Source: Candidatus Karelsulcia muelleri PSPU (GTDB lineage: Bacteria; Bacteroidota; Bacteroidia; Flavobacteriales; Blattabacteriaceae). Taken from it: 32,000 nucleotides of DNA. How positions within the stretch are numbered: the stretch's first letter is position 1; every line of letters starts with the position of its first letter. The notes under the pieces are model-generated. The model was not told the DNA's origin. It saw only the letters and a program-made list of their open reading frames with translations, and made no database searches. Below are positions 5,638 to 27,582 of this stretch, in pieces. The stretch covers positions 180,001-212,000 of the forward strand of contig NZ_AP013293.1 of NCBI RefSeq assembly GCF_000829155.1. Reading direction: 5' to 3'. The position numbers and the translations under genes were made by a program.

Positions 5638-7383
5638 TTAAATTAACTGATATACTTTATTCATTATATCAGATATTGTAAAAGGAATTCCTTTTATTTT
5701 ATTTAAAGCAATTGGATCTATTAAAAAATTATTTCGTATAATATTAATTAATTGACCATTATTTATTTCGGGAATAAGAATTTTTTCAAAATTATATATT
5801 ATTTCTTTAATTCCATTAGGAAATGGATAGAGATATTCTAAATGCATACTAGATACAGAATATCCTTTTATAATCAGTTTTTTAACTGCTTCTGTTATAC
5901 AACCATAAGTAGATCCCCAACTTAATATTAGTAATTTTCCTTTTTTTTTACCTATATTAATTTTTTGAATAGGTAAATATTTTTTTATTTTATTTATTTT
6001 ATTTTGACGATATTTTATCATCAATTCATGATTATCTTTATCAGTAGATACATTTCCTGTTAAATGTTTTTTTTCTAATCCTCCTATTATATTTTCAAAG
6101 CCTATATTACCTGGTTTAACCCAATATCTTACTCCATTTTTATTTCTTTCATATGGAAAATATATAATATTTTTATTATAATTAATTTTAATTTTATTTA
6201 ATTTTTTTTCTTTAGGAATTTTCCATGTTTCATAGCAATTTGCTATATATCCATCACTAAGGATTATAACTGGAGTCATATATTCTATAGCAATTTTACA
6301 AGCAATAAAAGATATATAAAAACAATTAGAAGGAGATTTAGAAGCCAGTATTGGAATAGGACATTCTCCATGTCTTCCATAAAAAGCTTGCAATAAATCG
6401 GATTGTTCTGTTTTAGTTGGTAATCCTGTAGAAGGCCCAGCACGTTGAACATTTATAACTACTAATGGTAGTTCTAACATAAAACATAAACCTAATCCTT
6501 CTTGTTTAAGTGACATTCCAGGGCCTGAAGTTCCAGTCATACCTAAATGACCTGAATAAGATGCTCCTATTGATGAAGTAATAGCAGATATTTCATCTTC
6601 AGCTTGAAATGTTTTTATTCCATTTATTTTAATATTAGATAAATAACTAAATATTTCTGAAGCTGGAGTAATAGGATATCCTGAATAAAACATTTTTATA
6701 TTTGCTTTTTTACAAGCTGCAATTAATCCTAATGAAATACCTTCGTTTCCATTTATATTTATATAATTTTTTAATTTTAAATTAGAAATTAATTTTAATT
6801 TTTTTTCTTTTAAAAAAAAGTTTTTTTTACCAAAAAAAAATCCAGCTTTTAATAAAATTAAATTTATTTTAATTTTTTTTTTAAAAAATTTAATTTTTAT
6901 AAAATTTTTAATTTTATTTATTGATATATTATAAAACCAACATAAAAATCCTAATATAAACATATTATTATTTTTTATGTTTAATTTATTTTTAATTTTT
7001 ATATTATAAAATATATAATTTTTATTTTTTAAAGGATTTTCTAAATATCCTGCTAATTTTAATTGTTTTTTATTAAATCCAGAAATTTCAGCTATAATTA
7101 TTCCTCCAATTTTTAATTTATTTAAATATTTTTTTAATGAAAATGCATTCATTACTATGAATACATCATATTTATCTCCTATATATGAGATTTTTTTATG
7201 GCTAATATTTATTTTAAATACAGAAATTCCTGATTTAATATTAGTTGAACGTATTTCAGAAGGAAAATCTGAAACAGTACTTATATAATTTCCTAATGAA
7301 GTACATATATATGCAAATATTTTTCCAAGAAATTGGATTCCTTCTCCAGAATTTCCAGCAAATAGTATATTTATACTATTCAT
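5638..7383 (-). CDS. korA: 2-oxoglutarate:ferredoxin (2-oxoacid:acceptor) oxidoreductase alpha subunit
   Basis: 581-aa ORF with GYPITPASE, EDEISAITSSIGASYSG, TSGPGMSLKQEGLG and VINVQRAGPSTGLPTKTEQSDL, which are the fused gamma/alpha domains of KorA-type enzymes. Confidence 0.88.
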   Translation of the reverse strand: MNSINILFAGNSGEGIQFLGKIFAYICTSLGNYISTVSDFPSEIRSTNIKSGISVFKINISHKKISYIGDKYDVFIVMNAFSLKKYLNKLKIGGIIIAEISGFNKKQLKLAGYLENPLKNKNYIFYNIKIKNKLNIKNNNMFILGFLCWFYNISINKIKNFIKIKFFKKKIKINLILLKAGFFFGKKNFFLKEKKLKLISNLKLKNYININGNEGISLGLIAACKKANIKMFYSGYPITPASEIFSYLSNIKINGIKTFQAEDEISAITSSIGASYSGHLGMTGTSGPGMSLKQEGLGLCFMLELPLVVINVQRAGPSTGLPTKTEQSDLLQAFYGRHGECPIPILASKSPSNCFYISFIACKIAIEYMTPVIILSDGYIANCYETWKIPKEKKLNKIKINYNKNIIYFPYERNKNGVRYWVKPGNIGFENIIGGLEKKHLTGNVSTDKDNHELMIKYRQNKINKIKKYLPIQKINIGKKKGKLLILSWGSTYGCITEAVKKLIIKGYSVSSMHLEYLYPFPNGIKEIIYNFEKILIPEINNGQLINIIRNNFLIDPIALNKIKGIPFTISDIMNKVYQLI

Positions 7384-12827: not shown

Positions 12828-15299
12828 TTAAAATTTATTATCAAATATAAAATTCAATTTCCATCCTGGTTTAGTAGTCTTATCAAGAGTTTTATCCAAT
12901 CTATAAGATAAATCACATCCTAAATATCCAATATAATTTACAAAAAGTCTAAGTCCAGTTCCTATAGAACGTTTTAAATTGAAAAGAGAAAAATTTTTAT
13001 AATTATCAAATATATTTCCAGCTTCAAAAAAATTAGAAATCCAAAATTTAAACCAATTTTTATCCAATATTAAATATCTTAATTCTGATTTATATTTATT
13101 ATAAATCACTCCTCCATTTTTGGGAGTTATAACTCCCAAAAATTTATTAGGTTCAGAATATCCTCTTAAAGGAATAAAATTTTCTTTATTTAAATTATCT
13201 TTTTCAAAATTTGTTCCTCCCATATAAAAATTATTAAGATTATTTGAATTATTATTCAAGATAAATCCAAATTCATATCCTATTTTAGTCATCAAATTAT
13301 TAAAAAATTGATTATACAAAATCGTTTTCAATTGAAATTGAAAATATTCAAAAAATTTTTTTTTAAAATTAGAAATTCTTAATAAAGAAGGTAAGGTAAA
13401 AATTGACTTTAATTTAAAATTTTCACCTGTTTTCATGAAAATTTGTTTTTTATCAATTGTGTTTTTATTAAACAAAAATTTAAATTTTAAATTTTTTGAT
13501 GTTTTAATAACTTTTGTTATCAAATTGTTTTTATTAAAAAAAGATTTCTTATTAGAATCATAATTTATATGAAATTCTAGTTTATTCATTTTTTTTAATT
13601 TTTTTATAAATTTAATTGAATTTTTATTTTTTGTCAAATAATAATTTTTTTCTTCATTTAAATTTGGGTTTGAATTAGATTCAATATTATTTTTCTTTTT
13701 TTCTTTAGAAGAAAATAAATTTAATTTAAATTTACTAAAATTAAATAATTTGGGATCTATAAAAGATAGATTAATTTCTTTTAAATTTTCTCCTAAATTT
13801 ATTAAAAAATTAACTTTTTGATTATCCCCATATGGCCTTTTATTAAATTTTAAAAAATTTAATAAAGAAAAATTCTTTATTTTTAAAAAAAATTGTCCAA
13901 ATAAATCAGGAACTTTATAATTCATTTTAAAGTTTATCTCACTATTTTTTTTTTCAGTAAATAAAAAATTAATATCTACTTGATTTTTTGTTTTATTGGT
14001 TTCATTATTCCAATCCACATTTTCAAATAAATCTAATTTCTTTAAATTTTCTAATGATTTTATAATTTTTTTATGAGACCATAAGTCTCCTGGAGAGAAG
14101 GTAATTTCTTGTAAAAGAATACTATCTTTTACTTTTTTATTTCCTATTAAATTTATTTTATTAAAATAAAATTTTTCATTTTCTAATATAGAAATCTCTA
14201 AATCAAGAACATTATCATCTACCTTTTTTTCAGAAAAACTAAATTTTGGATTGAAATATCCATTTTTTTTATATTCTGAAATTAGACTATTGGGATTAGA
14301 TTCATTTAATACCAAACTTTTTATTTCTAATAAATTAAAAATTTTATTTTGAATTGAATTAAATTTTTGTTTTAAAATGTTATCGTTAAAAAATTTATTT
14401 CCTTTAAAAGAACAATTTCTTAAAAAGTATTGATTACCTTGATCTATTTTTAGATTTAATAAATAATAATTATTATTAATTTTTTTTATTTTTTCTGAAA
14501 GAATTTTTACTTCTTTAAATCCATTTATTTTAAAAAGATTAATTAAATTTTCTTGATCTAATTTAAATTTGTCTTTAACAAAGATTTGTTCTTTAAAAGA
14601 ATTGATCATTATATTTTTTATTTCCTCTTTTGAAAAAAAATTATTTCCTTCAATTATTAAATCTTTTATTTTAAATAAATTTCCTTTTTTTACTGTAATT
14701 TTTAATTTATTATTCTCTTCATAATCCATTTGATATTGGATATTTGTATATCCTTTTTTTTCATAAAATTCATTAATTCTTTTTAAAAAAAAAATAATTA
14801 AATCATCATTTAAATCTTTTTTTAAAAAATCTTTATCAAAAATTAATTTTGATTCTTTTTCAGTAATTCCTATTACTTCAATAGTATTAAAATAATCAAT
14901 TTCATTAGATGATATCTCTAATATAATTTCTTTATTATTAAGATAATGTATATGAATTTTTATATCTTTAAAATTACCATATTTTAATAAATTATTTATA
15001 GTTTTATCAAAATTATATTTTTTTATATCAATTTTATCTCCTTCTTTTAAATCTATTAAAGATAATATTTCATTATTTCCATATATTTTAATTTTTTTTA
15101 TTTTAAAAAAATTTTCTTTATTAAAATTTTCTTTTATCATAATTTTATTCTCACTATGAGCTGGTTGAAAATTTTCTTTATTAAAATTTTCTTTTATCAT
15201 AATTTTATTCTCACTATAAGCTGGTTGAAAATTTAATTCCAAAAATAGCTCTATTATTAGATATCTTAATATAGATAAAAAATTATTCATTTTGTTCAA
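12828..15299 (-). CDS. bamA: Outer membrane protein assembly factor BamA
   Basis: 823-aa ORF with a signal-like N-terminus, POTRA-like repeats (KIKKIKIYGNN..., IKDLIIEGNNFFSKEEI, INLIGNKKVKD) and a C-terminal barrel ending in aromatic F (WKLNFIFDNKF). Confidence 0.85.
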   Translation of the reverse strand: MNKMNNFLSILRYLIIELFLELNFQPAYSENKIMIKENFNKENFQPAHSENKIMIKENFNKENFFKIKKIKIYGNNEILSLIDLKEGDKIDIKKYNFDKTINNLLKYGNFKDIKIHIHYLNNKEIILEISSNEIDYFNTIEVIGITEKESKLIFDKDFLKKDLNDDLIIFFLKRINEFYEKKGYTNIQYQMDYEENNKLKITVKKGNLFKIKDLIIEGNNFFSKEEIKNIMINSFKEQIFVKDKFKLDQENLINLFKINGFKEVKILSEKIKKINNNYYLLNLKIDQGNQYFLRNCSFKGNKFFNDNILKQKFNSIQNKIFNLLEIKSLVLNESNPNSLISEYKKNGYFNPKFSFSEKKVDDNVLDLEISILENEKFYFNKINLIGNKKVKDSILLQEITFSPGDLWSHKKIIKSLENLKKLDLFENVDWNNETNKTKNQVDINFLFTEKKNSEINFKMNYKVPDLFGQFFLKIKNFSLLNFLKFNKRPYGDNQKVNFLINLGENLKEINLSFIDPKLFNFSKFKLNLFSSKEKKKNNIESNSNPNLNEEKNYYLTKNKNSIKFIKKLKKMNKLEFHINYDSNKKSFFNKNNLITKVIKTSKNLKFKFLFNKNTIDKKQIFMKTGENFKLKSIFTLPSLLRISNFKKKFFEYFQFQLKTILYNQFFNNLMTKIGYEFGFILNNNSNNLNNFYMGGTNFEKDNLNKENFIPLRGYSEPNKFLGVITPKNGGVIYNKYKSELRYLILDKNWFKFWISNFFEAGNIFDNYKNFSLFNLKRSIGTGLRLFVNYIGYLGCDLSYRLDKTLDKTTKPGWKLNFIFDNKF
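15111..15230. repeat. Tandem 60-bp duplication (2 copies, 1 mismatch) inside the bamA 5' end
   Basis: 15111-15170 and 15171-15230 are identical except g at 15158 versus a at 15218. They encode NFQPAYSENKIMIKENFNKE and NFQPAHSENKIMIKENFNKE in frame. Confidence 0.95.
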
Positions 15300-18393: not shown

Positions 18394-18787
18394 GGGGCTG
18401 TATTGGAATTGACATCAAGATTAATATATAAGTAAGCATATCGTGTATTGTAATGTAATCACGTAAAATTAATTACAAAAAAAAACCGACAAAACAAATT
18501 ATGCTCTTGCTGCTTAATATTATTTATTAATAAAGAGTAAATTCGCATAAACTGCGAAAGCAAGATATTATTTTATTTTTTTTTTCTTACAAAAGAATAA
18601 AATATAAAATATAGTAAGAATAGGAAAAATTGAGGTTCTAAATTTTTCTAAAATTTATATAGAACTATTTTCTTTGTTAAAATTTCTTGTTATTTTACTT
18701 AGAATTATTTTTTTTTTATAAGATAAATATGTAGAAAGCTTATAATATTACTTGTTTGGACACGGGTTCGAATCCCGTCAGCTCCAC
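18394..18787 (+). ncRNA. ssrA: tmRNA (SsrA)
   Basis: The 5' end ggggctg pairs with cagctcc at the 3' end, which follows a tRNA-like T arm (ggacacgggttcgaatcccgtc). The internal tag frame reads ...KKTDKTNYALAA with TAA at 18515-18517. The exact resume codon was not determined. Confidence 0.9.
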
Positions 18788-18807: not shown

Positions 18808-19149
18808 ATGAAATATGAAACTCTTTTTATTTTAAATCCTGTTCTTTCTGAAGAACAGATGAAATATTGTGTCTATGAATACATAGATTTTTTTTTTAAA
18901 AAAAAAGCAAAATTATTGTTTCAAGAACATTGGGGTTTAAAAAAATTAGCTTATTATATACAAAATAAAATTAATGGATATTATCATGTTTTTTATTATA
19001 AAGTAAATTCTCAATTTATTTCTAAATTAGAATTAAAAATAAGACGCGATGAAAGAATCATTAGATTTTTTTCTGTTAAAATAGATAAAGATGCTTCTTT
19101 ATACATAAAAAGAAATAAAAGTAATTTGGTTCAGGCAGATTTTTTTTAA
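18808..19149 (+). CDS. rpsF: 30S ribosomal protein S6
   Basis: 113-aa ORF starting MKYETLFILNP (S6 hallmark YE..FI..P) with WGLKKLAYYI. It is the first gene of the rpsF-rpsR-rplI cluster. Confidence 0.92.
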   Translation: MKYETLFILNPVLSEEQMKYCVYEYIDFFFKKKAKLLFQEHWGLKKLAYYIQNKINGYYHVFYYKVNSQFISKLELKIRRDERIIRFFSVKIDKDASLYIKRNKSNLVQADFF

Positions 19150-19186
19150 AAAAAAAATTATATATAAATATAATAAAATAATAAAA

Positions 19187-20464
19187 ATGAAAAAAAATAA
19201 TATTGAAACTGAGACTAAAATAGTAAAACCTAAAAGATCTTATAAAAAAAAGATAAAAAACGTTAATGAAACTTCAATTGAAGGTGTAAAACCTAAAAGA
19301 TCTTATAAAAAAAAGATAAAAAACGTTAATGAAACTTCAATTGAAGGTGTAAAACCTAAAAGATCTTATAAAAGAAAACTTAAACCTGAAACGGAAGTAG
19401 CAAAACCTAAAAAAGATTATAAAACTGAAACGGAAGTAGCAAAACCTAAAAGATCTTATAAAAGAAAACTTAAACCTGAAACGGAAGTAGCAAAACCTAA
19501 AAAAGATTATAAACCTGAAACGGAAGTAGCAAAACCTAAAAAAGATTATAAAACTGAAACGGAAGTAGCAAAACCTAAAAGATCTTATAAAAGAAAACTT
19601 AAACCTGAAACGGAAGTAGCGAAATATAAACCGGAAACGGAAGTAGCAAAACCTAAAAGATCTTATAAAAGAAAACTTAAACCTGAAACGGAAGTAGCGA
19701 AATATAAACCGGAAACGGAAGTAGCAAAACCTAAAAGATCTTATAAAAGAAAACTTAAACCTGAAACGGAAGTAGCGAAATATAAACCGGAAACGAAAGT
19801 AGCAAAATATAAACCGGAAACGGAAGTAGCGAAATATAAACCGGAAACGGAAGTAGCAAAACCTAAAAAAGATTATAAACCGGAAACGGAAGTAGCGAAA
19901 TATAAACCGGAAACGAAAGTAGCAAAATATAAACCGGAAACGGAAGTAGCGAAACCTAAAAAATATTCTATAAAAAAAATTAAAACAGCAATTTTTCCAA
20001 TAAAAAATAAAATATTAGAATATTTTAATAATGAAATTAATCAAATTTTAAAAAATAAAAAAATCTATTTTAGATTAGATGAGTATAAATTATTAAATAA
20101 TAATATTATTTTAAATAAAAAAAAAAATAAAAAAATTATTTTTAATTTAAAAAAAAAATTAAAAAAAAAAAAAAAAATAAAATATAAACAAAATCTTGAA
20201 GAAATAGAATTAAGATTTTTAACTCCTTTTGAAGTAAAATTAAAAGAGAAAAAAAAATATTGTTTTTTTAAAAAAGCAAATATAGGTTATGTTGATTTTA
20301 AAAATCCATTATTTTTAATTAAATTTTTAAATGAAAGAGCAGAAATTCTTCCTAGAAGGATTACTGGAACTTCAAAAAAATTTCAAAGAAAAATAAAAAT
20401 AGCAGTAAAAAGATGTAAACAAATTGGTTTATTACCATATATAACTGATATATTAAGAAAATAA
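19187..20464 (+). CDS. rpsR: 30S ribosomal protein S18 with a ~339-aa repeat-rich N-terminal extension
   Basis: The C-terminal 86 aa (nt 20204-20464) are canonical S18: RFLTP...KKYCFFKK..IGYVDFKN..FL.KFLNE...ILPRRITGTS.KFQRKI..AVKR....GLLPY. The 425-aa ORF has a single Met, at position 1, so no internal ATG exists for a conventional-length S18. Confidence 0.85.
   Translation: MKKNNIETETKIVKPKRSYKKKIKNVNETSIEGVKPKRSYKKKIKNVNETSIEGVKPKRSYKRKLKPETEVAKPKKDYKTETEVAKPKRSYKRKLKPETEVAKPKKDYKPETEVAKPKKDYKTETEVAKPKRSYKRKLKPETEVAKYKPETEVAKPKRSYKRKLKPETEVAKYKPETEVAKPKRSYKRKLKPETEVAKYKPETKVAKYKPETEVAKYKPETEVAKPKKDYKPETEVAKYKPETKVAKYKPETEVAKPKKYSIKKIKTAIFPIKNKILEYFNNEINQILKNKKIYFRLDEYKLLNNNIILNKKKNKKIIFNLKKKLKKKKKIKYKQNLEEIELRFLTPFEVKLKEKKKYCFFKKANIGYVDFKNPLFLIKFLNERAEILPRRITGTSKKFQRKIKIAVKRCKQIGLLPYITDILRK
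19223..19963 (+). repeat. In-frame coding tandem repeat array
   Basis: Two 63-bp units (19223-19285 and 19286-19348, encoding VKPKRSYKKKIKNVNETSIEG) are followed by 16 cores gaaacggaagtagc[ag]aaa (ET[E/K]VAK). The cores are joined by three linker types, giving 27-, 39- and 51-bp units. Confidence 0.95.
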
Positions 20465-20488: not shown

Positions 20489-20929
20489 ATGAAAGTAATT
20501 TTATTAAAAAAAAATAACAATTTAGGAAAAAAATTCGAAGAAATAGATGTTAAACCTGGTTATGGTCGTAATTTTTTATTACCTAAACGTTATGTAATAA
20601 TTGCGACTAATTCAGTTAGAAAAAAAATAATTGAATTTAAAAAAAAAATAATTCAAAATAAAATAAAAAACCTAAAAAAAATTTTTTTTTTTTTAAAAAA
20701 AAAAAAAAAAATAGAAATTACTTTTTATCTTAAATTAGGAAAAAATGGAAAATTACTAGGATCAATTACTAAAAAAAATATAAAAAAAATTTTTTTTTTA
20801 AAAAAAAATAAAATAAAAAAAATTTTTTTAGAAAAAAGAAAAATAAATAAAATTGGAATTTTTAACGGTTATTTTAATTTACCATATAAGATAAAATACA
20901 AATTTTTATTTAAAATATTTTATTACTAA
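20489..20929 (+). CDS. rplI: 50S ribosomal protein L9
   Basis: 146-aa ORF with the N-terminal L9 signature MKVILLKK...LGKKFEEIDVKPGYGRNFLLPK and C-domain GKLLGSITKKNI. It contains a T13-A17 homopolymer junction. Confidence 0.92.
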   Translation: MKVILLKKNNNLGKKFEEIDVKPGYGRNFLLPKRYVIIATNSVRKKIIEFKKKIIQNKIKNLKKIFFFLKKKKKIEITFYLKLGKNGKLLGSITKKNIKKIFFLKKNKIKKIFLEKRKINKIGIFNGYFNLPYKIKYKFLFKIFYY

Positions 20930-21469: not shown

Positions 21470-22357
21470 TTATTTATTTAAATAAAGTTTAGAATAAATA
21501 TCAACAATAATTAAATATGATTCTATTTTTTTAAATAAAAATAGAATTTTATTTGAAATTTTTAATTTGTTTTCAATTTTAAAATTATTATCATTTTTTT
21601 TAAAAAAAGATAAATAATTATCATATAATTTTCTTGTTTCTTGAAAAGAATAATTTTTATTATTTTCTTCTATTTTATATTGTGATATAATCATATATAT
21701 ATAAAATATTTGAGAATCTGGCATATATAGAAAATATTTAATTAAATATTTAAATATTATTAGTGAAGATTTATAGTTTTTTTTATTAAAATAATAATAT
21801 GCTATTGTTAAGTGTTTTTGTTTTATTTTAAAAACAGCCTTATAAAGGTTAGAATCAACTTCTTTTATTCTAATACTATTAGGATATAATTGTTTAAATT
21901 TTAAAAACAAATCTATTACTTTGTAAGTATTTTTTTGATCAAAATTAAAATCATTAGATTTAAAATAATAACACATTCCTAGATAAAAAAGACTTTCTTC
22001 TGAAAGAAAATTAGTATCAAATTTAAAAAAAACAGATTTAAAATCTAAAATAGCTGTATCAAAATTTAATAAAAAATAATTACATAATCCTCTAAAAAAT
22101 ATAATTTTTTTATAAATTGTTTTTTCTTTATTTAACGAATTTTTCTTTTCAGATAAAACCTCTTTTAAAACTTTTAAAGTTTCTTCATATTTTTCTTTAT
22201 GAAAAAAATTAAGTGCTCTTTTTATATTTTTTTTAAATCTTTTATTTGTTATTTGAGTTTTATCAAAAATTTGAATTAAATTAATCATTTTATGATTATG
22301 AATCATAAATGATTTTTCATATTTAAAAAAAAATAATAAATTAATGAATATATTCAT
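21470..22357 (-). CDS. bamD: Outer membrane protein assembly factor BamD (TPR lipoprotein)
   Basis: TPR-like helical repeats (ALNFFHKEKYEETLKVLKEV..., YFLLNFDTAILDFKSV..., LFYLGMCYY) and bamD-rpoZ synteny. The longest ORF starts at 22444, inside dapA. I prefer Met30 at 22357 (signal-like MNIFINLLFFF), which still overlaps the dapA 3' end by 17 nt. Starts at 22306 or 22288 are also possible. Confidence 0.68.
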   Translation of the reverse strand: MNIFINLLFFFKYEKSFMIHNHKMINLIQIFDKTQITNKRFKKNIKRALNFFHKEKYEETLKVLKEVLSEKKNSLNKEKTIYKKIIFFRGLCNYFLLNFDTAILDFKSVFFKFDTNFLSEESLFYLGMCYYFKSNDFNFDQKNTYKVIDLFLKFKQLYPNSIRIKEVDSNLYKAVFKIKQKHLTIAYYYFNKKNYKSSLIIFKYLIKYFLYMPDSQIFYIYMIISQYKIEENNKNYSFQETRKLYDNYLSFFKKNDNNFKIENKLKISNKILFLFKKIESYLIIVDIYSKLYLNK

Positions 22358-23240
22358 TAAATAAATGAACTTTTTTAAGTTCCAAAAAAAGTTTTTTTTC
22401 AAAATTTGGGCTACTTTTAAATAAAGGTAATCTAACATATTCATGACATAATCCTTTTAATTTTAATAAAGTTTTTATTCCAGAAGGATTACCTTCTTTA
22501 AAAATTAAAGATATAATATTAATTATATTATAATATATTTTATAAGCATAATTAATTTTTTTTTTTTTAATTAATAAAATTATTTTAGAAAATTCTTTTG
22601 GAAAGGCTTGTCCTATAACAGATATAATTCCATCTCCTCCTCCCAAAATTATAGGTAATACTAAATTATCATCACCAGATAAAATTATAAATTTTTTTGA
22701 AGTTTTTTTTTTTATAAAATTATATGATTGTATCAAATTTCCTGAAGCTTCTTTTATGCCTATAATATTTTTTTTTTTAATTAATTTATTAATAGTTTCT
22801 ATATTAATATTACAACCAGTTCTATGTGGAACATTATAAATAATAATATTTTTATCAGTATTATCAGATATTTTTTTAAAATGATTATAAATTCCTTTTT
22901 GAGTAGGTTTATTATAATAAGGACAAACAGATAAAATTGCATCAATACGATCTAAATTTATTCTGTTTAAATTATATATTACTTTTTTAGTATTATTACT
23001 ACCTATCCCTAAAACAATAGGTAATCTATCATTATTAACATTTTTTACACAATTTATAATATCAATTTTTTCTTTTAACTTTAATGTACAAGCTTCACCA
23101 GTAGTTCCTAATAATACTAAATATTTAACTCCTCCATCTATTACAGAAGAAACTAAATTTTCAAGAGACGTAAAATCTATTTTTCCTTGTTTATTAAAAG
23201 GAGTTATTAAAGCAATACCAAGACCCAAAAGTTTTTTCAT
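22341..23240 (-). CDS. dapA: 4-hydroxy-tetrahydrodipicolinate synthase
   Basis: 299-aa ORF with LLGTTGEACTL (GTTGE motif) and the catalytic-Lys region IIGIKEASGNL. Confidence 0.92.
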   Translation of the reverse strand: MKKLLGLGIALITPFNKQGKIDFTSLENLVSSVIDGGVKYLVLLGTTGEACTLKLKEKIDIINCVKNVNNDRLPIVLGIGSNNTKKVIYNLNRINLDRIDAILSVCPYYNKPTQKGIYNHFKKISDNTDKNIIIYNVPHRTGCNINIETINKLIKKKNIIGIKEASGNLIQSYNFIKKKTSKKFIILSGDDNLVLPIILGGGDGIISVIGQAFPKEFSKIILLIKKKKINYAYKIYYNIINIISLIFKEGNPSGIKTLLKLKGLCHEYVRLPLFKSSPNFEKKLFLELKKVHLFNEYIH

Positions 23241-26639: not shown

Positions 26640-26837
26640 ATGAAATTAATTACAAATGTAAAAGAAGGAGAATCTATAGATAGAGTTTTAAAAAAATGTA
26701 AACAAAAATTTGATAAAGCTCGTATTTTAAAAAAATTACGTAAACGTCAACATTATATTAAACCTTCTGAAAGAAAAAGGAAAAAATTAATAAAAGCTAA
26801 ATATAGAGAATATATAAATTCTAAAAATTATGATTAA
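26640..26837 (+). CDS. rpsU: 30S ribosomal protein S21
   Basis: 65-aa basic ORF with ESIDRVLKKCKQKFDKARILKKLRKRQHYIKPSERKRKK, the typical bS21 pattern. It overlaps the aroE start by 8 nt. Confidence 0.9.
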   Translation: MKLITNVKEGESIDRVLKKCKQKFDKARILKKLRKRQHYIKPSERKRKKLIKAKYREYINSKNYD

Positions 26838-27582
26838 AATATATGGATTAGTAGGTAAAAATATTAGTTATTCTTTTTCTAATTCTTTTTTTAAAAGAAA
26901 ATTTAAAAAAGAAAATATAAAAAATACTATATATAATATTTTTGATATAAAAAAATTATCATTAATAAATGAAATAATAAAAGTAAATAAAAATTTTTTA
27001 GGATTTAATGTAACTATTCCATATAAAAAAAAAATAATTTCTAAGATTAATATCATTAATAATAATTTAAAAAAAATAGGATCAATAAATACTGTTAAAA
27101 TCATAAATGATATTACTATAGGTTATAATACAGATATATATGGATTTGAAAATTCATTTAAACTTAAATTAAAATCATATCATAATAATGCCTTAATTTT
27201 AGGTAATGGTGGAGTATCTAAATCTATAATATATGTTTTAACAAAATTAGGTATAAAATATCTTGTTGTTTCAAGAAATAAAAAAAATGGTATTTCTTAT
27301 TCAAATATTTCTAAAGAAATTATTAATAATAATAATATTATTATTAATTGTACTCCATTGGGAACATATCCTAATATTAATGAATGTCCTAATATTCCTT
27401 ATGAATTTCTGTCAAAAAAACATTATTTATATGATTTAGTTTATAATCCTAAAGAAACTTTATTTTTAAAAAAAGGAAAAAATATAGGATGTATTGTCCA
27501 AAATGGACTAAATATGCTTTATTTACAGGCAAATCTTTCTTGGAAAATTTGGAATGAGATTAATTTTGATATATTATATTAA
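26830..27582 (+). CDS. aroE: Shikimate dehydrogenase
   Basis: 250-aa ORF with YGLVGKNISYSFS, GFNVTIPYKKK, GSINTV, GYNTD, the NADP loop ILGNGGVSKS, NCTPLG and LYDLVYNP. Confidence 0.88.
   Translation: MIKIYGLVGKNISYSFSNSFFKRKFKKENIKNTIYNIFDIKKLSLINEIIKVNKNFLGFNVTIPYKKKIISKINIINNNLKKIGSINTVKIINDITIGYNTDIYGFENSFKLKLKSYHNNALILGNGGVSKSIIYVLTKLGIKYLVVSRNKKNGISYSNISKEIINNNNIIINCTPLGTYPNINECPNIPYEFLSKKHYLYDLVYNPKETLFLKKGKNIGCIVQNGLNMLYLQANLSWKIWNEINFDILY

Follow-up and report, generated by a model that had tools for sequence, protein, structure and literature searches.

The rpsR locus and its extended reading frame

We analyzed a 32,000-nt stretch of the chromosome of Candidatus Karelsulcia muelleri PSPU (hereafter Sulcia; contig NZ_AP013293.1, positions 180,001 to 212,000; "the window"), in which an initial annotation had described a nested tandem repeat array at 19223–19963 without identifying the gene that carries it. 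By Pfam and operon position, the array lies within the open reading frame (ORF) of rpsR and encodes the repeat part of an N-terminal extension, approximately 340 residues long, of ribosomal protein bS18. Two close relatives have proteins annotated as 30S ribosomal protein S18 [Candidatus Karelsulcia muelleri], P0001 (249 amino acids [aa]) and P0002 (267 aa), encoded on complete chromosomes of 284,838 and 287,254 bp, respectively. The loci of these sister strains are referred to as L001 and L002. The window represents a third strain of this lineage with genomes of approximately 285 kb; its exact S18 and AsnRS proteins had no identical record in public collections. The features of the window locus are as follows.

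19187–20464, plus strand: extended rpsR, a single ORF of 425 codons comprising the repeat-bearing extension, the linker, and the bS18 domain
19187–19222, plus strand: unique N-terminal leader MKKNNIETETKI, 12 residues, the same in L001 and with three residues different in L002
19223–19285 and 19286–19348, plus strand: two identical 63-bp units encoding VKPKRSYKKKIKNVNETSIEG (Tandem Repeats Finder and direct comparison)
19349–19963, plus strand: core array of 16 units K[P/T]ET[E/K]VA (regular expression), with higher-order periods of 129, 78, and 93
19964–20200, plus strand: non-repeat K/N/I-rich linker, approximately residues 260–338, confined to the three strains of this lineage
20161–20177, plus strand: A17 homopolymer within the rpsR ORF, a poly-Lys stretch between the repeats and the S18 domain
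20201–20464, plus strand: bS18 domain, residues 339–425 (Pfam Ribosomal_S18 and structure-chain alignment)
18808–19149, plus strand: rpsF (bS6), upstream operon gene (Pfam Ribosomal_S6, E 4e-22), in the same place in the sister strains
20489–20929, plus strand: rplI (bL9), downstream operon gene (Pfam Ribosomal_L9_N, E 1.6e-16)

The repeats occupy residues 13–259 of the 425-codon ORF. Pfam Ribosomal_S18 (PF01084) matched residues 366–416 with 63.6 bits against a cutoff of 21, and bS18 chains in the PDB matched the ORF with E values down to 1.8e-28. Residues 339–424 aligned with residues 13–98 of the 98-aa bS18 of Flavobacterium johnsoniae (PDB 7JIL chain w; E 1.6e-27), so that the domain alignment runs end to end, and the order rpsF–rpsR–rplI is the same in the two organisms. 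Unlike the F. johnsoniae protein, the Sulcia protein carries approximately 326 extra N-terminal residues and has Phe and Ala in place of Arg34 and Ser38. The rpsF–rpsR–rplI order is also shared by L001–L004 and is the normal Bacteroidota arrangement. A length of 425 residues is outside the range typical of bS18 (approximately 75–100 residues). However, the S18 domain is intact, and the protein is therefore an extended member of the bS18 family rather than a non-member.

Structure of the repeat array

The array periods were determined with Tandem Repeats Finder, and the cores were counted and their spacing measured with the regular expression GAAACG[GA]AAGTAGC[AG]AAA. Tandem Repeats Finder reported arrays spanning 19223–19967 (matches of 93–100% and scores of 300–500 in the window and the sister strains). 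In the window, the periods were 63 (2.5 copies, 98%), 129 (1.9 copies, 99%), 78 (3.3 copies, 98%), 93, 90, 39, and 27. The hierarchical nesting noted in the initial annotation was thus recovered, with periods from 27 to 129 bp. The 63-bp units starting at 19223 and 19286, which had been called perfect copies, were identical, and a third, partial copy extends to approximately 19378.

The regular expression gave exactly 16 cores, the number counted before, with the first at 19388 and the last at 19937. The core-to-core spacings were, in order, 39, 51, 39, 39, 51, 27, 51, 27, 51, 27, 27, 27, 39, 27, and 27 bp. These values agree with the three linkers previously described (27-, 39-, and 51-bp units), whose peptides are KY, KPKKDY, and KPKRSYKRKL, respectively. 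The module order of the core array is aX bT aX bX bT aX cX aX cX aX cZ cX cX bX cZ cX. The copies had been described as almost identical, and the 21-nt core unit (K-P/T-E-T-E/K-V-A) indeed varied in four columns only: two synonymous third positions (CCT/CCG, 8:8; GCA/GCG, 10:6) and two first positions (C/A, giving P/T, 14:2; G/A, giving E/K, 14:2, the two E-to-K changes). The synonymous variants were linked to the type of linker, GCG occurring with the KY linker and GCA with the KP linkers. The higher-order block KPKRSYKRKLKPETEVAKYKPETEVA, said to occur three times, was found in two exact copies, whereas the third carries one E-to-K change.

When up to three mismatches were allowed (≤3), the core pattern had 14 matches in the window, all within the array, compared with 0 in 100 shuffles, which excludes chance. 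Repeated slippage or misalignment between tandem copies during replication is indicated by the nesting of the periods, the perfect identity of copies, the association of synonymous variants with particular linkers, and the blocks of several units.

Predicted RNA folding of the array was worse than that of its shuffles (z = +1.84), and a CCG-GAAA-CGG mini-hairpin of the CCG-type units, considered as DNA, was weak and not significant (z = −1.4). A small, unrelated protein from the representative library, P0053 (119 aa, no annotation, CxxC...CxxC at its N-terminus), has three copies of IVKPKRKYERKIKDIENTE at its other end. They share 56% identity with the 21-residue unit VKPKRSYKKKIKNVNETSIEG of the window (E 4e-5), probably through convergence of K-rich repeats.

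Turnover of the array between sister strains

The 20 kb surrounding the locus were collinear with the window in both sister strains (identity 96% in L001 and 93% in L002), and the synonymous divergence (dS) of neighboring genes between strains was approximately 0.02–0.07. Outside the array, the DNA of the gene (leader, linker, and S18 domain) was almost identical in the three strains, the single indel being of 6 nt within an A-run. The arrays at the same site were entirely different. L001 has 7.8 perfect copies of the 21-bp unit TTGAAACCGGAAGTAGCGAAA (LKPEVAK). In L002, a 63-bp unit (VKPKRSSIKSRKPVNEASIEV) is present 4.4 times (99%), and units of the PEVAK type are absent. In-frame tandem duplications have lengthened the N-terminal tail of S18 to roughly four times the usual size, in a different way in each of these close strains. 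Different arrays at the same site in strains 93–96% identical in their flanks indicate that expansion and contraction took place after the lineages split. Identical copy number and sequence across strains, which the initial annotation had named as the sign of an old, static feature, were not found, and its proposal of recent expansion is supported.

The 27-bp unit of the window corresponds to the 21-bp unit of L001 in which 6 bp have been duplicated internally (CGGAAA-CGGAAG). The higher-order copies of 78 and 129 bp are near-perfect and must post-date the split from L001, which again supports recent expansion. The 63-bp units of the window and L002 are homologous but only approximately 84% identical, and their differences are mostly amino acid-changing. 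Within each strain, the copies of the unit are identical (99% in L002). This pattern is one of concerted evolution with rapid turnover.

Reading frame of the extension

The S18 frame of the extension contains no stop codon in the window, where the other two frames contain 34 and 70. The corresponding numbers were 0, 29, and 26 in L001 and 0, 24, and 38 in L002. The S18 frame is thus open through 341, 165, and 183 codons in the window, L001, and L002, respectively. The shuffled extension was never open in 2000 trials, and the shuffled non-repeat linker was open in 5e-5 of trials. In the window, codon 1 is the sole in-frame ATG, GTG, or TTG before the S18 domain, and the ATG at 19187 is conserved in all three strains. 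All unit lengths in the three strains (21, 27, 39, 51, 63, 78, 93, and 129 bp) are multiples of three. The A17 run could cause a frameshift, yet the run is in frame in all three strains, L002 having two A19 runs. In L003, which belongs to another Sulcia lineage, the extended rpsR ORF begins 2 nt past the rpsF stop codon.

These features are strong, though indirect, sequence evidence that translation starts at the ATG at 19187 and runs through the entire ORF. The product would be a bS18 of approximately 50 kDa, with a tail of approximately 340 residues that is rich in proline and lysine, has a net charge of approximately +65, and is probably disordered. If this tail is incorporated, the ribosomes of this symbiont would bear a flexible appendage of approximately 40 kDa and +65 beside the mRNA exit. 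A phase-variable contingency locus was considered and rejected: since the units are all multiples of three and lie inside the ORF, the array itself cannot switch the gene on or off.

The two A19 runs of L002 lie at positions 385 and 457 of its rpsR gene. A-runs are prone to DNA, transcriptional, and ribosomal slippage, which at the A17 run may be either required for or harmful to production of the S18 domain.

The starts of Sulcia rpsR are annotated inconsistently for near-identical genes, as in P0018 (83 aa) versus P0024 (148 aa) and P0004 (97 aa) versus P0006 (131 aa). Some annotated starts are non-ATG codons right at the S18 domain, and others take in the tail. For these annotations, which range from 83 to 167 aa, the open-frame evidence favors the long forms.

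No Shine-Dalgarno (SD)-like sequence was found in the stretch before rpsR (19150–19186) or upstream of rpsU, the bS21 gene at 26642–26839. In free-living Flavobacteriia, rpsU carries a strong SD that is used in autoregulation (PMC7797042), and this circuit appears to be absent here. A role of the repeat GGAAG/CGGAAG as an autoregulatory element pairing with the anti-SD, as has been proposed for rpsR and rpsU in Bacteroidia, was rejected as unsupported, since it mismatches GGAGG and both rpsR and rpsU are without an upstream SD.

GC content and codon usage of the array

The initial annotation had described the units as far richer in G+C than their surroundings. The array had a GC content of 0.306 (0.329 in its core part), compared with 0.189 for the window and 0.134 for what remains of the ORF. 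On a scale of 741 bp, no other site in the window is as GC-rich (0.308 versus 0.293 for the best site elsewhere), and to that extent the description holds. At the 200-bp scale, however, it ties with a site near 6344 (0.38), and the enrichment is modest and mostly an effect of amino acid composition (P, E, T, A, and V). The array consists of 29% K, 14% E, 10.5% P, 8.5% V, 8% T, and 6.5% A.

Part of the excess is synonymous and lies in codons that are rare in this genome. ACG accounted for 16/20 Thr codons in the array versus 9/306 in other genes, CCG for 8/26 codons versus 3/226, and GCG for 6/16 codons versus 4/204; the GC content at third codon positions was 0.138 versus 0.07. The L001 unit has CCG and GCG throughout, and the variants of the window (CCT, GCA, ACT, and AAA) are all GC-to-AT changes relative to L001. 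This pattern fits a young, GC-richer seed unit that decays under AT pressure while it is re-amplified. Peptide selection and a young origin had both been offered as the source of the excess. Because rare G-ending codons are beyond the reach of selection at the peptide level, a young founder unit is the better fit of the two. The excess may then combine amino acid composition with rare G-ending codons that hitch-hiked with the amplified founder unit and have not yet decayed.

S18 tails in other Sulcia and beyond

Across Sulcia, the S18 domain is highly conserved and the N-terminal tail hypervariable. The S18 proteins of other Sulcia are 83–167 aa long, those of free-living relatives 87–100 aa, and those of free-living Flavobacteriales, Blattabacterium, and Shikimatogenerans 87–124 aa; the 425-aa protein was the longest bS18 in these searches. 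Sulcia genomes of approximately 190 kb have an S18 of 97–152 aa with a basic tail (KVGTTKVKVK...). Those of approximately 245–277 kb have an S18 of 129–167 aa with an acidic tail (net charge −15 in L003), and in these, closely related strains carry different numbers of a TPET motif.

In an exhaustive HMMER search, the linker and repeats had no homologue among 1.84 billion representative proteins except in a sister strain. The other matches to the extension were compositionally similar, unrelated P/E/T/V/K-rich repeat proteins. The linker was absent from all S18 proteins found outside the three strains of this lineage, and a 50-mer from its conserved sequence had no match in JGI metagenomes. 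A foreign origin of the repeat unit was also considered, but the 15-mer CCGGAAGTAGCGAAA gave only single chance matches in viral contigs. AlphaFold2 predicted coil for residues 1–262, with a predicted local distance difference test (pLDDT) score of approximately 45. A folded domain in the 75-residue linker was rejected, as AlphaFold2 gave only low-confidence helices (pLDDT 32–52).

The linker itself (19964–20200; L001 10337–10464) showed weak tandem-repeat signals with a period of 32–36 (in L001, 36 bp with 3.5 copies, 71%). It could be an older array that decayed under AT-biased mutation, in a cycle of birth and decay, although such a signal alone is not significant in AT-rich sequence.

Known analogues

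The closest analogues are the plastid rps18 genes. In the account of Weglohner & Subramanian (1991) given in PMC2695775, grass plastid rps18 has a basic heptapeptide, SKQPFRK, repeated 6–7 times near the N-terminus, with a copy number that varies by species. In Cereus plastids, an insertion rich in tandem repeats brings rps18 to 1308 bp and 927 bp (bioRxiv 10.1101/2025.08.18.670840). As in Sulcia, the same protein is encoded by a reduced, AT-rich genome of bacterial descent, in-frame basic repeats lie upstream of the S18 domain, the length or copy number differs between close relatives, and the gene is judged functional. L001 even has a heptad (LKPEVAK, seven copies), and the Cereus gene has 436 codons compared with 425 in the window. 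On the other hand, the Sulcia repeats are much closer to perfect and are replaced between strains that differ by only 4–7%, their units are nested (27, 39, 51, and 63 bp) rather than forming one simple heptad, and the host genome is that of an insect endosymbiont and not of an organelle. The Sulcia units (KPETEVAK, KPKRSYKRKL, and LKPEVAK) share no sequence with SKQPFRK, so that their origin is independent and the likeness is one of convergence and not membership. By analogy, we regard the array as an in-frame tandem-repeat expansion at a permissive protein terminus, the S18 N-terminus of reduced genomes. The plastid parallel suggests that this terminus is generally permissive, and possibly useful, for expansion in such genomes.

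Mitoribosomal bS18m (6xyw_Bq and 9evs_Q) likewise has a long N-terminal extension before the S18 domain in a ribosome of endosymbiotic origin. However, the organellar extensions are conserved, non-repetitive, mostly nuclear-encoded, and structurally integrated, whereas the Sulcia extension is repetitive, predicted to be disordered, and strain-specific.

Heterogeneity in tandem-repeat length has been reported for Sulcia and Nasuia genomes (Waneka et al. 2020, PMC7952229). Unlike the rpsR array, those loci are a 6-bp microsatellite and short arrays of approximately 55–140 bp in leafhopper Sulcia, and none was described in rpsR or as giving an essential protein of several-fold greater length. Long ORFs annotated as S18 are already known in two public Sulcia genomes; full-text searches turned up no account of repeats extending S18 in Sulcia or in any other insect endosymbiont.

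Proposed slippage and a probable passenger tail

Slippage between tandem copies does not need recombination genes (RecA-independent repeat instability). The view of the initial annotation, that the array calls for processes that reduced endosymbionts usually lack, therefore does not hold. In the mechanism that we propose, the tail would grow, shrink, and be reshuffled through replication slippage between tandem copies, on nested scales that may have begun with the 6-bp duplication inside the core and continued with units of 21/27, 39/51, 63, 78, 93, and 129 bp. Length changes other than multiples of three would be lost, since they would shift the frame and destroy the essential S18 domain that follows. 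The N-terminus of S18 faces the solvent on the 30S platform, where a tail may be tolerated. Its sequence would then be largely a passenger under weak or no selection that, as a polycation, probably binds RNA non-specifically.

Slippage was also indicated at a bamA-like gene, which has strain-specific, in-frame, near-perfect duplications of 60, 45, and 63 bp in the window, L001, and L002, respectively.

15108–15234, minus strand: 60-bp duplication (2.1 copies, 98%) in the bamA-like gene at 12828–15299 (Pfam POTRA); the peptide NFQPA[Y/H]SENKIMIKENFNKE occurs twice
L001 5946–6068: 45-bp duplication (2.7 copies) of the bamA-like gene, in frame
L002 4870–4998: 63-bp duplication (2.0 copies, 100%) of the bamA-like gene, in frame

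The bamA-like gene thus appears to be a second slippage hotspot of this lineage. Slippage events are therefore not unique to rpsR, which is special in its repeated N-terminal tolerance.

Taken together, the frame, turnover, and composition of the extension suggest that it is probably a tolerated passenger tail that is constrained only to keep the reading frame intact, an interpretation that we favor with some reserve. The mechanism is ordinary, and a function of the tail is unproven. Sulcia is a textbook case of genome stasis, to which the rpsR array, completely rebuilt between strains 4–7% apart, is a striking exception. Sequence gain driven by slippage would thus continue in a genome of approximately 285 kb, counter to the trend of reduction, and the array offers a ready high-resolution length marker for typing strains and host populations.

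Several points weigh against a passenger tail generated in this way. The tail is strongly basic in all three strains (net +65, +32, and +43), which may reflect selection for charge, and a 340-residue tail on an abundant protein under strong reductive pressure is not obviously cost-free. The substitutions among the three strains are too few for a meaningful ratio of nonsynonymous to synonymous divergence (dN/dS) on the linker, the tail, and the S18 domain, and the copy number of the array is derived from the assembly. Spittlebug Sulcia (strain CARI) has been reported to retain mutS, mutL, and mutH (PMC7952229), which implies that a repair defect is not required for the instability.

Alternative explanations

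An alternative that we regard as unlikely, though the strongest of those considered, is that the tail is an adaptive RNA-binding arm: a polycationic, proline-punctuated extension selected on the 30S platform near the mRNA exit and the pocket of bS21, bS18, and bS6. In Bacteroidia, these three proteins form a pocket that sequesters the 3′ tail of 16S rRNA (PMC7797042, PMC13000457). Such an arm might capture A-rich mRNAs that have no SD, stabilize rRNA, or replace a lost factor, with repeat turnover tuning its length. A disordered 340-residue arm with a charge of +65 at the 30S platform would inevitably touch RNA, and the retention of a long, strongly basic tail in all three strains despite complete repeat turnover is in keeping with selection. 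We also compared the residues of F. johnsoniae bS18 that contact the 16S 3′ tail according to PMC7797042 (Y32, R34, K37, S38, I40, F50, N56, E57, L62, R65, and L66). By alignment, 9 of the 11 are kept in Sulcia (Y358, K363, I366, F376, N382, E383, L388, R391, and I392, the last for L66), and those replaced are R34 (by F) and S38 (by A). Solved mitoribosome structures include long N-terminal extensions of organellar bS18 (6xyw_Bq, 261 aa; 9evs_Q, 237 aa), and plastid S18 has its basic heptad repeats. However, other Sulcia clades carry acidic or far shorter tails on an almost identical S18 domain, so that no property of the tail is conserved across Sulcia. Additionally, the 63-bp units differ between strains mainly by amino acid-changing substitutions, nothing resembling the tail was found outside this lineage, and no fold was predicted.

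A wider form of this proposal, which we consider less probable again, is that a fast-evolving polycationic 30S arm has been selected on a ribosome blind to SD sequences and that plastids (grasses and Cereus) and Sulcia independently expanded this terminus under one shared pressure on AT-rich reduced genomes. Such a pressure might come from the need to capture A-rich mRNAs without structure, or to make up for rRNA or protein elements lost near the mRNA exit. If the arm is selected, bS18 would be a recurrent site of ribosome remodeling from bacterium to organelle.

It is very unlikely that the array lies outside S18, as an untranslated leader or a separate decaying ORF, with S18 made from a non-canonical start (ATA or ATT) near residue 335–340. 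Some pipelines do use such starts in other Sulcia (P0018, 83 aa, begins MRFLTP), and annotators differ on rpsR, with 83 versus 148–154 aa in genomes of approximately 270 kb and 97–103 versus 131–152 aa in those of approximately 190 kb. The usual bS18 has just 75–100 residues, and as Bacteroidia make no use of SD sequences, a ribosome-binding site offers no confirmation of the start. Against this stand the S18 frame, open over approximately 340, 165, and 183 codons in the three strains where other frames have 24–70 stops, and the fact that every repeat unit and indel is a multiple of three while the shuffled linker stays open so rarely (5e-5 of trials). Moreover, past codon 1 the window offers no ATG, GTG, or TTG until the S18 domain is reached, and the conserved ATG lies close behind rpsF.

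The least probable explanation is that the length or arrangement of the array is a product of mis-assembly. Short reads are poorly suited to resolving near-perfect nested repeats of 27–129 bp that extend over 740 bp, and the exact S18 protein of the window has no identical record in public collections. Against this, two independent complete sister assemblies have repeat arrays at the same site with the same conserved boundaries, and the window array is in frame, with variant copies whose higher-order arrangement is orderly and unlike a collapsed consensus.

Neighboring genes

A scan for promoters and terminators between rpsF and rplI gave counts equal to chance. A remnant of ssb or priB between rpsF and rpsR was rejected, as Pfam gave S18 only and Bacteroidota relatives have rpsR directly after rpsF. 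On the minus strand, the ORFs of a TPR/BamD-like gene (21470–22444) and dapA (22341–23240) overlap by approximately 100 nt as listed, and the shorter starts in the sister-strain annotations (310 and 272 aa) make the upstream start of the BamD-like gene doubtful. Farther upstream of rpsF are asnS, two tRNAs, rplU, rpmA, and tmRNA. The tmRNA gene lies between rpmA and rpsF at 18394–18787 (Rfam, 69.5 bits), and ARAGORN gave the tag peptide DKTNYALAA.

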